Assembly (NCBI GenBank): GCA_964187785.1
Contig: OZ076409.1
Location: 19,966,001 to 20,030,000 of the forward strand
Length of the DNA stretch: 64,000 bases
Reading direction: 5' to 3'
From: Amphiscolops sp. MND2022
Taxonomy: Eukaryota
Positions 42,659 through 50,858 of this stretch are shown in pieces. The position numbers were made by a program, and so were the translations under genes. Under the pieces are notes generated by a model. It did no database searches and was not told the DNA's origin. It worked only from the letters and a program-made list of their open reading frames with translations. Each line of letters starts with the position of its first letter. Positions within the stretch are counted from its first letter, which is position 1.

Positions 42659-45289
42659 TTTTATCTAAAACAGACCAATAGTAAACAACTTGAGACAAAT
42701 CAGGAAACGTTTCGAGACGTTTCGGCATAACTTCAGAATCACAGGGGGTGGAAGACGTTTCGGCAACTTTTTGTTGCCGAAACGTCCGCCGCCATCTTGT
42801 TGCCGAAACGTCTTGTGCCGAAACGTCTTTAAGCTATAGAGCCATTTGGATCGGAAGTAGCTCTGTTTTCAACAGCCTTGATGGATAGTCTCTTTCTGTT
42901 ACAATCCATTTGCTGACATGATTTTGGAATCTCTCCATCCTCGATATATCATTTGAAGAGGGAAACCATGCTTCAGATGCATAGAAGAGCACTGGCATCA
43001 AAAATTGTTTGTAGACCCTGAGTTTGGTCCTCATGTCCAGTTTATCAGGCAGCTGTCTCTTCAAATCCTGAAACAATCCATAGCAAGTGGAAAGTTTTTT
43101 GGAAAAATGTTGCGACCATTTTAATTTCTCGTTAAAATAGACACCAAGATCTTTAACTAGTTCTGATGGAATAATTGTATCATGGGCACATTTGATAAAC
43201 AACGTTGAAGAATTTGTTCCAAAGTCCAGAAAATTCGTTTTGATAGAGTTAAATTTCATAGCGTTGTTATCGCCCCATATCAGACAGTTGTTCAAATCCA
43301 ATTGAAAATCAGTTAGGGAAATATTATTTTTCAGCTTGCTATCGTCAGCGTATAAGTATAATATTGAATTAATACAAGACTGAGGTAAGTCATTTATAAA
43401 AATGACAAATAAAAGGGGACCCAAAATAGAACCCTGTGGCACCCCACTGGTTACAGATTGATAATCACTAAACGTGTTGCAAAATTTAACACATTGATAT
43501 CTCCCAGATAGGTATGAAGCTATTAGTTTCAAAAGCGTTCCTCCAATCCCAATTTTACGTAATTTTGCGAGCAATAAGTTATGCTGCACCTTGTCAAACG
43601 CTTTACTGAAGTCTAGATACGCACAGTATGCAGTGCGGTTGTTGTCAATGTCTTGATAAATGTCGTCTAAGAATATAATAAGTTGCAGAACAGTAGTTTC
43701 TTTCTAACAAACCCATACTGATGTTTGTAGATCTTATCACGGATTTTTTGGTAGAGATAATTAAAAAGGATTCGTTCAAAGGATAGTGATAGCTTCGAAA
43801 GGTTAGATATGGGTCGATAGGAAGTCACATCTGTTTTCTTGCCCTTTATGAAGGTCGGTTTTATGAAGGAACATTTCCAAGAATTAGGGTATATACCGGT
43901 ATTGGCAAAAGCTGAGAATAATTTGAAGATATGAAATGTAAGCTGTGTGGAATATTGAGACAGGAAGCTTCCTGGTATTCCATCTAACCCTGAACCAGGA
44001 GTACACTTTTTCAAAGCTTCGTTGACATCATCGAATGTAATGATTAGTGTATTGTGATCATTTGGAGAAAAATCTCCAAATGGTGACATTGAAGGTTCAT
44101 AATAAGTAGCAAAATAGTTATTGAAAGTATTGGCGATTTTGCAAGCATCACTTATCCACGTTTGATCATTTTCATCAAAAAATGCTTGAGGTAGGTTATT
44201 GTCAGTTGAGAGGCTATTTAATAATTTGTAACAGCCGAAAATTCCACTATTTTGACGGCAGAACTGTTCCAAAAATACGGTCGTATCCAGAATAATTGAT
44301 TCTTCACATGATGAATCCAATTCCTGATGATTGCATGGTATATTTTGCTTCATATGTTTTCGGCAAGCCGTATTTCGTTTATTGAGGAGATGCATGGTGT
44401 GTGAAGAGTAAAAGTATGGTACTTGCTGTCTCTTTTTACGTTTAGTAGTTTGAAAAGCATGTAAGTAGCTTTGGAAAGTTTTGAGCCAATTTTCAGCATA
44501 ATATGCAATATTTTGCTGGATGATTGAAAAGAGTGATTCCGATAGATAGTCTGCAAGAGCAGCAAAATTCTTTGATGAAAGTTGAGGTAGGGGATTTTCG
44601 TTTCGGTTTACCATTTGCGAGACGATAGTGAATATAATGGCTTTGTGGTCAGAAAATGCGACATTTTTGGCTTCAAATTCATTTGCAAATGGATCGGAAA
44701 AATTTTTCCAGACCAAGTCCAGGGTATTTAACGACTTATGAGTAGGCACGTTCACAAATTGTTGGAAATTGTTTTCAAGTAAATACTCAATAATCTCATT
44801 AAATGCGAGATCTCGAGATGTATATGATGACCAATCTGTTTCTGGCTGGTTAAAGTCTCCAAGAATAAGAGTTTTATGTGTTTCGAACTTTCCGGAAAGA
44901 CTTTTTAGCAGTAGCAGAATATTTTTGGGCTCGATTCGGTAGCAACTATTCTTCGGGGGGTTGTAGATACAAATAATAAGTAACGGAGATCCTATTTGCA
45001 AAACTGCAGCACAACAAAAATCATGTTTCACTTTTATTGGTGTAATTGGGATAGAATTTCGATTAATTATGGCAGTGCCTCCATGTATCCCACTTTTTCT
45101 ATCTTTCCGGCATTTCATAGTATATTCGTTAGTAGCAAATAGGTTTGAAGTGCATGATGAATCCAACCAGGTTTCGGTTAAACATAAAATATCTAGCTGT
45201 TGACTGTAGGCCAAGTTCATTAATGATAAACGTTTTGAGAAACTAACTATGCTGCGGCAGTTTAGGAGCGATATTCGTAGTAGATTCAG

Positions 45290-46069
45290 TCATTCTACAG
45301 TAACTTCAATTCCATCACAAAATAGTTTGAGATTCCGAATTCGTATTCTACTTTTATCTGTCCCTTCATTTATCAGCTGGTATCTTTTTGCCAAAAGTTT
45401 CTTCTCGATAGTTCTTTCTTCCGGTGACAGCTCTGGTACAATCAAAATTTTGTCGGTTTGAAATAATTTATTCTGGATGGCAAGTGCCAAGCATTTTCTT
45501 TTATCCCAAATTGACTTGAATGATACGAGTAATGGACGCTTCTTTTGGGTATCAAAACGACCAAGTCTTCTGCAATCAGCAATATCAGGATTTCCACCTA
45601 ATTTGGAAATAACTGCTTCAGCATCTAATTTTTCTTTTAAATGTCTTTCGTTTGCAAATTTGATATCATTTTCAGGCAGCCCAATGAATTTCAGCTGGCA
45701 TTGATAATCATCAATTTTTCGGATGGGCGTAGCAACTGTCTGCGGAATTGCTTTTCCGGATTTGGGCAAATCTTCATTTACCTTTTCAACTTTTTCCACT
45801 AATTTCTCATTTTCGCGTTTCAAATCCTCTATTTTTTCAGAAATAAAAGAAATATTGGAAAGATTCAACTTAGCTTCTCTCAAGTGGCCGATGGAATCTT
45901 TGAGGAGGCATAAGATCGAGTCCTTGGTCAATTTGTCTGTCAAATGCTTGAAACCATCATTTGATGAATTGACCAGTTCGTCAATTGTTGGGTAGTAGTC
46001 TCTTCCCCCAGGTTGTCCATTTTTAGCCACATCAACATGTTTCTTCCCACCATTACCTCGCGGGCTCAT
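45290..46069 (-). CDS. LINE ORF1 (coiled coil + RRM-like)
   Basis: 259-aa intact ORF directly upstream of the APE ORF, with GLPE, RLGRF...RPLLVSF and ELSPEER motifs typical of CR1/L2 ORF1. Confidence 0.8.
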   Translation of the reverse strand: MSPRGNGGKKHVDVAKNGQPGGRDYYPTIDELVNSSNDGFKHLTDKLTKDSILCLLKDSIGHLREAKLNLSNISFISEKIEDLKRENEKLVEKVEKVNEDLPKSGKAIPQTVATPIRKIDDYQCQLKFIGLPENDIKFANERHLKEKLDAEAVISKLGGNPDIADCRRLGRFDTQKKRPLLVSFKSIWDKRKCLALAIQNKLFQTDKILIVPELSPEERTIEKKLLAKRYQLINEGTDKSRIRIRNLKLFCDGIEVTVE

Positions 46070-46872
46070 CCCTGGAACTATTTAATAAGTTTATCACAAC
46101 AATCATTATAAAATACCCAAGGTATAAAGCTAAAAACATCACGCAATGGAGTAATTCATGTACAATAAAAATGAGATAGAAAATATATCATAGAGAGAAA
46201 TATAAAATTTCCAACAACTATAATTTTAACGTTAGGTCCCTCGAGCGGTATTCTGCATCTATTTGCTCACAAGCTTCCCCGTTCAACACGGACTACATAT
46301 ACATTGATTATCATATTGAGACTTCATTTAATCTAGTCACCAGAAACGTCCAAAACAACGCTTATGGTAAACTCCTGATAACTAGGTAATTTTTGAATAT
46401 GTGGACACAATCTGAACTCTAAGTAGCTCCATTCAATCAAGTTGAAACTCTTCAAGTAAGTGGTTCCGAAAAACACCAATGGACCCGAAAACTTATGTCG
46501 TATAAAAAATACAAAAAAATGAGATAGAAAATATATCATAGAGGGAAATACAAAAATTCCAACAACTATAATTTTAACGTTAGGTCCCTGGAGCGGTATT
46601 CCTCTCGTTGGTTCAATATCAATTCTTCCAATTAGTTTTATGTACCTGAAGCACGAACGCAAGTTAGCCGACAATCACTAAAATATCGTGGAACTGTCTT
46701 ACTGAATCATCTACTAAAAACGAAGCTATTACCTCGCAATTATGAATCTATCGGTGAAAATGAGACTAAAAGATTGATATTAAAAATTAAAAACAAAATA
46801 GGTAGCGAACGTCTGGCAGACATAGTTTTTTGTTGATGCCCTTGTGTTTGGAGGGTCCTCCCCCGTTTAGGA

Positions 46873-47426
46873 GGTTACCAGTCACTTGGCTTAATACCAT
46901 TTGGCTTAATTTTTTCGTCGAATCATTTGGCTTAAAAATTTTAAGCCAAGTGACCACAAAATTAAGCCAACTCCATTCCAACTCAAGGAATAAATATGTC
47001 AACTCCCGGAAATATCATAATGTGGGGCATATGCGGTGTATGCACTCTCGCCCTCACCGTCGCAAAGACCAGCTCCCACTACGATCGCTTCGCGATCTTC
47101 GTTCCCGCTAGGTCTTTGCTCCTGTTCGACCTCGCTTAGCAAGATGGGAATAAAAGCGGCCCCAAGGGGCCGCAGGGCACTAGAGGAAATGGGGATATAT
47201 CCGAGCATTCCTTAATGACATGTTATAATAATACGCTGACTACGTTATAAAGATAAATTCGACAAAATCTGCCACGTGTTTTCAACTAAGTGGTTTTAAG
47301 TCAAATGACTTTGAGCCAAGTGACCAATACCCGAGACACTTATCTTAAAAAATTAAGCCAAGTGACCAATTGTATTGAGCCAAATGACTTTAAGCCAAAT
47401 GGCATTAAGCCAAGTGACCATTTACC
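46873..47426. mobile_element. MITE family A copy
   Basis: Same termini and core, 8-bp TSD GTTTAGGA/GTTTAGAA. Confidence 0.85.
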
Positions 47427-47852
47427 GTTTAGAATTAATAACATTTGGAGGGTCCCCTCTGGTGCTATATTTTATTTAAACTGACTGCATTGTACTTAAC
47501 TTCTGTACTGGTACCATTGTTCAATTTTTTAAACATAACGTCAGAGAAAATTTAATTCTTTCTTCTTCTTTCTTCTTCTTCTTCGGCCTAGTCCTCGCCA
47601 CGTACAGAGCTTCCATTGTCAGTGATTTGTTGACGTTCGTGCATCGGTCCAGTACTGTCGCCGTCACTTCGCCTGTTTTAACTGCGCATTCACCAAAATG
47701 CCTTCCCAGTGGCAATGACTTCCTTCTGTGTTCTCCCAGTCTAGTGATCACATGTCTGGCCGTTTGGCCGACATAGCGGGAGTGGCATCCCGGACATTCA
47801 ATTTGGTAGATCACTTTACTCGAGAGTTCTTCAGGTATTGGCTCCTTCATTA

Positions 47853-48056
47853 GAGTGCATAGGCAAGCTTAATTTGCTCAAAGCGCACTTTGTGCTTTGA
47901 ATGCCTCGGATTCCACGACCAAACCTTTAACCGTGCAAAATTGACAAATTACGTCATAAGTCCCGGATTCCACAAACAAGCATTCCACGGACAAGCAGCG
48001 GAATTTTCGTGTCCCGGATTCCACGACAAGCAGCAAAATAGTTTGCCTATGCACTG
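47853..48056. mobile_element. Tc1/mariner-type MITE within the Penelope ORF
   Basis: TA-GAGTGCATAGGCAA ... TTGCCTATGCACTG-TA, with internal GGATTCCAC repeats. Confidence 0.8.
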
Positions 48057-50305
48057 TAATGTTTAGGCTTGGTAGGCAGCTTTTGAGTTTCCTGGTGGTG
48101 AAAATAGTCGACACTCCATGGGTTCGCAGTCTGCGTGCGAATCTATCGCTTTCCTGGTCCCTAAACTGTAACATCAAAAGGGGCGCCGTTCCTTGCTCTT
48201 TTCCACAGCTTTCCCCTCACCTGTGTCCTGTCGGTTGATTGGACTTGCGACATTCCGAATCTGTTGATAGTGTCCCGAACAAAATTTCCATAAAATTGAG
48301 GAGGATATCCATTTTGCTCAAACGTCAGTTGTGCCTTGGCTACGCCATCATGGAAGGCAATCCAGTCTGTCGTTGTATGGTTTATTCGGTGAATGGTTCC
48401 CTCTACAACGTTCCTGTTATATTGGGTAGGCGCCAAGCTCTGAAAGTTTAGCATCAAACCGGTGTCAGTCGAATTGGTGAACCACTTCATTTAAGGCTAT
48501 CTTGGTGTCGGACGATCTTCATGTCCAAAAAAGACAACGCTCCTTCACTTTCCAATTCCATTGTGGTTCAAGGTTTCTATGGAGGCTATTCGCCATCTTA
48601 AGGAGAGTGTCAACATCCGTCTTCTTCACTGCTCTTATGATGTCGTCGACATAACGAGCGAAGATCTTAGCTCTTTTGGGGATCTCCGTCGTGCATCCAC
48701 AGAACCAGTATTAGTTGTCGGTCTTCAAGTTTATGTCGTCTTCCACACATCGTTGGTGGAACCACAGACAGCATCCATCACATAATACCGCCTTCTCGTT
48801 GTCTTCCACGTTCTCACCACAACCGCCACATGGGAAGAAGTTGTCCATTGGATTGTTCCGTACCGATATCGGTTCAACTCTAGCCAGGGTGTCCTCAAAA
48901 GTGTTCATCCAAATGTTGGCCAGCACCACGGAAAGAGATGACCCCATGGCCAAACCTTCGGTTTGAAGATACACAACATTTAAACAAAACATTGGTAAGA
49001 GCTAGATGTAAGAGCTTCTGAAAAACTGCCCTCGAAGGGAGGGGGCTCCAGCCCATCATATGCCAATTTAGTCGCTAACTCGATAGCTTCATCTACTGGT
49101 ACGTTCGTGTAAAGACTTTTCACGTCCAGTGATATAAGGCACTCGTCATCTTCTAAGGTAGTTCCCATCAGCTCCTCCTTTAGTTTTTGAGAGGAGGTTT
49201 GAATCCGTCCTTCATCAATGTCTTTGCAATACGAAAACAGAACGCGCGTCAAACTCTGATAACAACTTCCTTCTAGAGATAGGACTGGTCTGAGTGGTGT
49301 TCCGTCCTTATGAACCTTCGCGAGACCATAGAGTCTCGCCGGCTGAGCTCCAACCGAGTGCATTGATTCGTTTAGTTCTTTGGAGATCTTCTCTTTATAC
49401 AGAGTCATCAATTTGGCGTTGGGGGACTTTTCCGATTTTTTAAGGTTCCTCTTTTTGACGCGGGAGCTCCAGAAATTGTGGGCCTCTGAGTATATCCGTG
49501 AGCCTCTCCCCGTACTGCTCTGATGTTTGCAAGCAAAAACCCGCCCTTTTGTCAAACGGAACGGCTTTCACAATTTCTTTCTTCAAATACCAGTTAACCT
49601 TAACAACCGATTTATCGGGTTTTTGTTTCAGCATGCGATTGGATTGTTGTCCTGCACGGTTAACGCGTTGATCTCATTTTTTTCTCTCCGAGTCCTCAGC
49701 TGGTATTTGTGCCAGTATCTGGTCCATGTCTGCCAAGAAGTGCATTTCACGACACTGTGCCAATATCTCGTAGACATAACGCGGTATATGCAGTCCTGAT
49801 AGATTCACCACCGTGCCTTCAGATCGTGAAATAGGTTTTTCCTGACGCTCAGAGAGTGATTGTAATTTTGTTTGATGTCTGATTCGGATACCATTTCTAT
49901 GTGCTTGAACTTGCCTCCTGGAGTGAACAGTGACCGATAGTCGAAGGTGGTCGGGTAATAAACTTTTCAGTTTCGATCGGGTTTCGTCAACCCCCTCCAA
50001 CCTCACTGCTAGAATGTTCAGTGCCGATGACAGTTCTTTTCTCAGCAGGCGCTTTTGAAAACAATGAACGGAGTTGTCATCAAAACAATTTTTGTCTGGA
50101 ATTCTGAACCGTAGAAAGGACGGGATGATATCATTGTCTTTGCATTTCCGAAGAAAGGCACAACGCTCGGCCCCGTGCACCCATTTTCTTCTGGCTTCAG
50201 CATAATTGCAATATTGTTTCCAGATGTTGCGTTTCTGTAATATCTTCTTCAAAAGTGACCTTGGATAAAACATTGGACGTAATAAATACAAAAAGGTTTC
50301 TCAAT

Positions 50306-50345
50306 GTTAAAACGTTTTCAATTCCAAGGAATCATCATCAATAAC
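50306..50345 (-). ncRNA. Hammerhead motif, second pLTR copy (C3>U core mutation)
   Basis: gtta-TTGATGA-T-gattccttggaatt-GAAAACGTTT-taac. Confidence 0.55.
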
Positions 50346-50858
50346 TAAAAATACACAATCATTATAAAATACCCAAGGTATAAAGCTAAAAAAAATCACG
50401 CAATGGAGTAAGTCATGTACAATAAAATGAGATAGAAAATATATCATAGAGGGAAATATAACATTTCAAACAACTATAATTTTAAAATGAATATCATTGG
50501 TTAAACTTACATCTGGCAAAATATGATCCAATTCAATGGCTCCGATCTACATGCAACGAACTCGGAAATGAACTACTAAGTCTATTACCAACGTTCTCGA
50601 CATGAAAGTAGATGAACTAAAGCGCTGTAATAAAAGGTGTACCGAATGACATAGAAGAAGTCCAAATCAGGGCAATACTTCAGGAGAACTATCAAGGGAT
50701 TTATGTGAAACGTTTCGTTAATGCGGAGGGCAAGATTCTACAGGCAGTGAAGCTGACCTTTCTGGCCGAGTTACAATACAATACTGCAACATCGGATAAA
50801 TTTTTATCGACTCCCTCTACAACCAACAATATGAATTTGTCCAGAGGGGCATCAGAAT

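Follow-up and report, generated by a model that had tools for sequence, protein, structure and literature searches.

The window, i.e. the whole 64,000-nucleotide stretch of Amphiscolops sp. MND2022 DNA that was analysed, carries on its minus strand a dead copy of a Penelope-like element (PLE), with several frameshifts, an open reading frame (ORF) distributed over several frames and two later insertions. Its parts, listed from the 5' to the 3' end of the element, are the following.

50283..50485, minus strand: upstream pseudo-LTR, which duplicates the element's 3' end and matches the 3' ends of family copies
about 50311-50345, minus strand: hammerhead-like core in the upstream pseudo-LTR; the first base of CTGATGA is T here
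47583..50273, minus strand: broken single PLE ORF (N-terminal domain, RT, thumb, GIY-YIG endonuclease), delimited by tblastn with intact relatives and six-frame translation
48906..48956, minus strand: RT motif B' (GLAMGSSLSVVLANIWM), lacking the two prolines that PHD-less relatives have
48831..48890 (bounds approximate), minus strand: linker 1, differing among families in both length and sequence; pLDDT below 50 in a relative's model
48693..48830, minus strand: PHD finger, C4-H-C3, with a W-x-C-x-C end and a private TAA at 48713-48711
48666..48692 (bounds approximate), minus strand: linker 2
48642..48653, minus strand: RT motif C, YVDD
47848..48061, no strand assigned: later 214-base insertion with inverted ends, missing from other family copies
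47583..47847, minus strand: GIY-YIG endonuclease part (VIYQIECPGC...YVGQT...EH...H), recognised through PF01541 on relatives
46626..47582, no strand assigned: later repeat insertion splitting the element's 3' end, part of which matches 60 fetched loci
46099..46625, minus strand: ORF end together with two incomplete copies of the downstream pseudo-LTR (46505-46625 and 46099-46253)

A sequence-only reading of this DNA had proposed that one minus-strand frame leads from RT motif B' through a PHD finger to motif C, and translation confirmed it. Between 48977 and 48558, a single frame contains GLAMGSSLSVVLANIWM (motif B', with its A at 48950), followed by FPCGGCGENVEDNEKAVLCDGCCLWFHQRC, *YWFCGC and KIFARYVDD, the latter ending at 48642. 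The finger had been placed at 48693-48830 and these coordinates are exact, its first Cys starting at 48830 and its last Cys ending at 48693. The C4HC3/W pattern described for it also holds, whereas the stop codon that was thought to come later actually lies inside the finger (TAA 48713-48711, after the sixth ligand and before the Trp), and the finger ends in a C-x-C rather than a C-x-x-C ligand pair. With X in place of the stop, the finger scores 26.1 bits (E 8.6e-6) against the PHD profile PF00628, above its cut-off of 24 bits.

Two neighbouring features complete the locus. The 214-base insertion has inverted ends of ~19 bases and resembles a small DNA transposon, of which no second copy was found among the fetched loci. 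At about 45000-46100, also on the minus strand, lies a LINE remnant consisting of a coiled-coil/RRM-like ORF1 and the start of an APE endonuclease.

The finger in the window family

A DNA search of the 1.07 Gb source assembly with the segment from B' to C retrieved 14 places, 12 of them with the full-length segment (one with an internal deletion), one part-deleted and one 5'-truncated. An upstream RT probe devoid of the finger detected the window and 11 other copies, all within these 14 places, and therefore no insert-less copy of the family, as the sequence-only reading had considered, was seen among the 14 with either the DNA or the PHD-free RT probe, the copy counts being lower bounds. The codon at the site of the window's stop encodes Glu in all 12 readable copies of the 13 that were fetched, which, together with the invariant ligands and Trp, argues that the finger is not a chance pattern. 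No full ORF is present among these 13 copies, the longest frames reaching 496-521 aa.

Individual copies have their own histories. One of them received a copia-like frame of 1,014 aa (L037:109-3150, minus strand). A brief look at the 3' junctions of 11 copies found them AT-rich, and the 3' ends of two copies (L036 and L041) lie at almost identical positions of one repeat, reflecting either target preference or duplication.

A PHD-bearing lineage of PLEs

At least 11 divergent PLE families of the source genome carry a PHD finger at the same site, those other than the window family being 36-47% identical to P0002. The expectation of a fixed and stop-free finger in intact copies is borne out at the level of the lineage, since the intact ORFs P0002-P0004 (851, 875 and 905 aa) combine RT, PHD finger and C-terminal GIY-YIG endonuclease. 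RVT_1 matches are found in PHD-bearing ORFs, and PF01541 (GIY-YIG) exceeds its cut-off in P0004 and in locus L065, the window family remaining just under it (21.2 vs 22.6). The alignment of PHD-bearing PLEs also contains the C-x-x-C...H...H (CCHH) signature and a DKG/DKS motif. Pseudo-LTRs or partial tandems are present, and a pattern search located a hammerhead-like CTGATGA-stem-GAAA core after 7 of 9 PHD-bearing ORFs; on five related loci, Rfam gave no hammerhead match and only below-threshold hairpin matches. A head-to-tail array of PHD-bearing PLEs was noticed on contig C1820 of the source assembly (L044, L027, L029 and L030), where about 14 near-identical units, several with full ORFs, follow each other with a period of about 2,743 bases on 39 kb; C3:18.94 Mb (L056) is a further such place. 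One of the three intact ORFs mentioned above belongs to such an array.

Protein searches additionally revealed high-copy PHD-bearing families from further genomes. By profile coverage, 68 of the best 150 matches span the finger plus B' or C, including two low-scoring rows (P0128 and P0152) that are unconvincing as PLEs. P0193, P0014 and P0030 are assigned to other genomes because their best matches in the source assembly reach only about 50-66% (about 50-56%, 62-66% and 51-55%, respectively, with only the best candidates scored). The clusters of P0193 (220 members) and P0300 (54 members) each include a RefSeq protein that bears the name of the acoel Symsagittifera roscoffensis, the sole named host among the PHD-bearing matches that were looked up; XP_063725604.1 extends from motif B' to a point in the finger's first half, and XP_063722202.1 ends before it. 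A 'PHD/RT' cluster of the ESM Atlas (score 0.76) is a lead only, its Cnidaria label coming from one record.

The spacing between B' and C, taken from the G of GxxMG to the Y of YxDD, could be read in 190 PLE sequences, near-copies included (five more had no readable motif). It amounts to 33 residues in 113 sequences and to 95-126 residues in 76, all of which are PHD-bearing (69 by the strict pattern, seven degenerate), and to 71 residues in a single sequence with a Cys-free insert. RT trees were computed on the core without the insert, clustered at 85%, midpoint-rooted and free of named reference PLEs, with 120 rows for FastTree (26 PHD-bearing and 94 PHD-less) and 63 for a quick IQ-TREE run (26 and 37, in which 28 outside PHD-less rows were kept). 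In both trees, the 26 PHD-bearing representatives make up one side of a single branch with a support of 99, which corresponds to one change and agrees with the proposal that a PLE lineage carries a PHD finger inside its RT. The sister group consists of PHD-less PLEs from the source genome, and the Clytia protein P0262 falls in the PHD-less outgroup. P0250, a PHD-less PLE outside the branch, carries 38 extra, unrelated residues, rich in T/E, at this B'-C site.

No loss of the finger was detected among the 26 representatives, which are about 50% identical in the RT, and a screen of 37 further PHD-less or broken loci of the source assembly disclosed no PHD-less member of the branch: 33 are nearer to PHD-less families and four are ambiguous with a short spacer, three of the latter being placed outside the PHD branch. 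Three gapped matches proved to be copies with frameshifts that still show remnants of the finger. None of the 26 PHD rows has either of the two motif B' prolines, at least one of which is kept in 91 of the 94 PHD-less rows; as proline loss and finger gain fall on the same branch, they are one event and not independent evidence. The PHD finger is thus a lineage trait of a PLE branch and not a one-off capture, and we infer a single gain.

Selection, splicing and predicted structure

Across 12 families of the source genome, pN and pS are 0.38 and 0.85 for the finger, 0.33/0.85 and 0.34/0.88 for the RT, and 0.65/0.77 and 0.64/0.78 for the linkers, ratios that are qualitative only because pS is saturated. 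Judged by these substitution patterns, the finger is under purifying selection as the RT is, in line with the dN/dS check that had been suggested, and the linkers are not. In 12/12 families, the residues at eight ligand, two Trp and one Val positions never change, while their codons do. Among 24 representatives, identities of finger and RT are correlated (Spearman 0.49, permutation p 0.0002), a value inflated by kinship. Removal of the segment by splicing had also been envisaged; a GT..AG pair restoring the 33-residue spacing was found in 0 of the 12 families.

PF00628 is above its cut-off in 7 of 12 PHD-bearing ORFs and weaker in the other five, and 20 of 29 fingers have C-x-C as last pair (script count). 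An AlphaFold2 model of an intact ORF of 859 aa (mean pLDDT 89.8) has a well-formed B' helix and motif C strands, a finger with values of 80-90 and two linkers below 50, and its best matches are telomerase RTs (Z 15.7, rmsd 4.1, 397 aligned). The finger of the window family, modelled alone (pLDDT 79), matches the fold of PHDs, Pygopus and Alfin being the best (TM about 0.72, best E 1.1e-3), and Pygopus also comes first in sequence searches of the PDB with the finger. The structural check thus returned a TERT-like RT with a separate Pygopus-like PHD: the finger is predicted to fold independently, attached by two loose linkers, and to leave the palm intact. In RT structures, the B'-C link is located on the outer side of the palm.

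Origin of the finger

Scoring 91 non-PLE fingers with the PLE-finger profile, from which two ORF1-like LINE fingers of the source genome missed by the pattern were left out, placed at the top three fingers ending in W-x-H-C-x-C, the best one being that of P0155, a 2A-PHD-APE-RT LINE. The 2A-PHD LINEs L163 and L166 of the source genome (W-x-H-C-G-C ends) rank 18 and 23. The likeness of outside PHDs is inflated in this comparison because they were picked by a PLE-PHD profile. A host gene as donor was rejected on this ranking, the 19 host PHDs occupying places 69-91 of 91. In a 55-column PHD tree, a branch with a support of 96 unites seven C-x-C fingers of LINE type with 15 PLE fingers. The PLE fingers do not form one group in this tree (six changes), and a tree constrained to keep them as one comes close to rejection (AU p 0.054). 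The finger of the window family is outside the branch with the LINE fingers; the latter nest among PLE fingers, and finger replacement or PLE-to-LINE transfer is therefore possible.

Taken as an inference on both donor and direction, the finger was likely gained once from a 2A-PHD-APE LINE, which would amount to the passage of a domain from one class of retrotransposon to another. The 2A-PHD-APE layout is known and widespread, so that a LINE donor is the most parsimonious interpretation: for Crack and CR1 elements, the available text of Odon et al. 2013 (PMC3708506) describes a PHD that follows 2A and precedes APE. These LINEs share the finger type, the C-x-C fingers of P0155 and L163/L166 being the closest look-alikes; their finger is N-terminal, ahead of the endonuclease, whereas that of the PLEs is within the RT. 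In the source genome, L163-L166 (C4:34.99 Mb, C10:61.16 Mb, C5:53.73 Mb and C4:33.90 Mb) are single-ORF LINEs with frames of up to 1,387 aa that combine APE and RT with a 2A-like motif (GDVESNPGP) and a PHD ending in C-x-C.

Discussion

The sequence-only reading regarded the architecture as undescribed, which applies to a part of it. A PHD finger in the RT of PLEs has been published for Chlamys elements: in its available text, Craig et al. 2021 (PMC8557442) reports PHD insertions in five Chlamydomonas Chlamys families, which lie either in the endonuclease or between RT2a and RT3 and are inside the RT in three of the five, and the five true PHD notes among 12 text matches in its supplement all concern Chlamys. 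Chlamys elements have an N-terminal endonuclease, an IFD and a CxC motif and belong to green algae, whereas the PHD-bearing PLEs found here have a C-terminal endonuclease, occur in animals and keep their finger branch-wide between B' and C. In the open literature (outside Repbase, Dfam and subscription journals), we found neither a finger described between B' and C nor any PHD described for canonical animal PLEs, and the B'-C site and the animal branch appear to be new.

Judged from domain features, with trees free of named references, these PLEs seem to be Penelope/Poseidon-like. As in Penelope/Poseidon-type EN+ elements, a single ORF contains the RT followed by a GIY-YIG endonuclease with CCHH and a DKG-type motif, and the linker zinc finger is likewise absent, with pseudo-LTRs and a possible hammerhead-like core. 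They differ by 62-93 extra palm residues with the PHD, by the disappearance of both B' prolines and by GPKH instead of GxKF/Y. According to the definition in the available text of PMC8557442, the CX2-5CxxC zinc finger of the RT-EN linker marks Neptune and Nematis; it is absent from our alignment, as in Penelope/Poseidon. The Hydra clade (DKT, no CCHH, CxCX5C linker) does not match the DKG/DKS motif and CCHH observed here, nor do Naiad and Chlamys (N-terminal endonuclease, IFD, CxC domain) match the C-terminal position of the endonuclease.

What the finger does may be approached through Pygopus, whose PHD is its best solved match in both sequence and fold. In the available text of Fiedler et al. 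2008 (PMC2726290), the H3K4me2 pocket of Pygopus is made of Y341, V350, D352, A356 and W366, with E360 holding the tail, and mutants of V350, A356 and W366 lose H3K4me binding. The equivalents of these three residues are kept in all 29 fingers, as V, S/A/G and W, respectively, although folding may be what maintains them. The window family has F, V, D, A, D and W at the positions of Y341, V350, D352, A356, E360 and W366, and a net charge of -7. The PLE finger is nevertheless not a Pygopus gene: compared with the described Pygopus PHD, its loop 2 is shorter, it has a C-x-C end, and the acids are missing in most families (D at the D352 position in 2/29 and D/E at the E360 position in 12/29, the Y341 position being aromatic in 7/29). 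Since 17 of the 29 fingers have a net charge of +4 to +11, those that are basic and devoid of the acids should fit poorly to a basic histone tail. A complex prediction between the window-family finger and unmodified H3 1-35 from the source genome yielded a score of 0.08, uninformative either way.

The reading that we favour, with a probability of roughly 0.45, is that the finger tethers the PLE protein-RNA complex to nucleosomes through the H3 tail during insertion. The Pygopus-type pocket of the finger would bind the K4-methylated H3 tail, and the finger would hold the complex on chromatin while the element inserts; an effect on target choice would be a further step. A more far-reaching version, which we hold only tentatively, is that this animal PLE lineage took a histone-reader finger from a co-resident LINE into its palm, remodelled motif B' on the same branch and selects H3K4-marked chromatin for its insertions, families later retuning histone versus DNA binding.

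The charge distribution raises the main competing idea, i.e. that the finger is a nucleic-acid clamp whose basic surface grips target DNA (or element RNA) and aids target-primed reverse transcription, and that it does not read histones in most families. The basic fingers, the R/K/Y/F residues at the Pygopus acid positions and the predicted location of the finger on flexible linkers of a polymerase are all in its favour, as is the absence from PHD-bearing PLEs of the linker zinc finger that the available text of PMC8557442 gives for Neptune and Nematis. We consider it less likely than tethering to the H3 tail, because the window family is acidic with a full Pygopus pocket pattern and because charge ranges from -7 to +11 whereas V, the small residue and W stay constant. 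Rapid shifts of surface charge between families could also point to a non-histone protein, from the host or the element itself, bound for instance for nuclear or germ-line entry or for escape from silencing, all the more so as some of the solved PHDs with a matching fold have peptides other than H3, or partner domains, as their ligands (PHF2-VRK1, Pygo-BCL9). No partner is indicated and the conserved positions are those of the H3 pocket, which makes such a role rather improbable.

Other readings give the finger no function. The loop evidently accepts inserts, as the one of P0250 illustrates, and its linkers evolve freely, so the finger could be a passenger, a LINE fragment kept because its unfolding would harm the RT. 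However, linker indels are frequent (spacing 95-126) and yet none of the 26 representatives has lost the finger, and V and W are invariant at non-ligand positions, so that this scenario has little probability. As for a one-off capture, an intron or an assembly artefact, the dead window copy with a stop in its finger might suggest them, but the finger occurs in every family copy reaching the site, in other families and in other genomes, and the splice-site search and codon-level constraint agree in making them extremely improbable.

Binding to the H3 tail, our preferred reading, would bear on a question shared by several element classes. PHD fingers are found in LINE ORF1/ORF2, DNA transposons and algal PLEs, where the studies consulted do no more than suggest a role in chromatin. 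Here, the finger occupies a short and otherwise fixed stretch of 33 residues between two catalytic motifs, and a palm loop of a telomerase-related RT accepts a whole domain. The PHD-less sister families of the same genome provide a natural controlled pair for the question of PHD-steered insertion. If H3K4-marked chromatin is indeed chosen, chromatin-mark targeting would be built into the polymerase of a target-primed retrotransposon, and the long-open role of transposon PHD fingers would become testable. In chromoviruses, a retroelement enzyme, the integrase, is likewise joined to a histone-reader fold, the chromodomain, which may guide insertion; chromoviruses are LTR elements and carry the reader at the integrase end, whereas the PLE finger is in the polymerase palm.

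Finally, other PHD-bearing sequences were encountered. P0154 and P0039 are 2A-PHD modules with other cargo, an integrase core (below cut-off) and DUF6570, respectively, and the 2A-PHD module therefore seems mobile between element classes. At loci L087-L100, ORF1-like frames of about 300 aa with a PHD occur in high copy number and are almost identical. At C8:16.17 Mb of the source assembly (L073), a multi-PHD host gene occupies a single open frame of 3,433 aa, from which the genome seems intron-poor at this gene.
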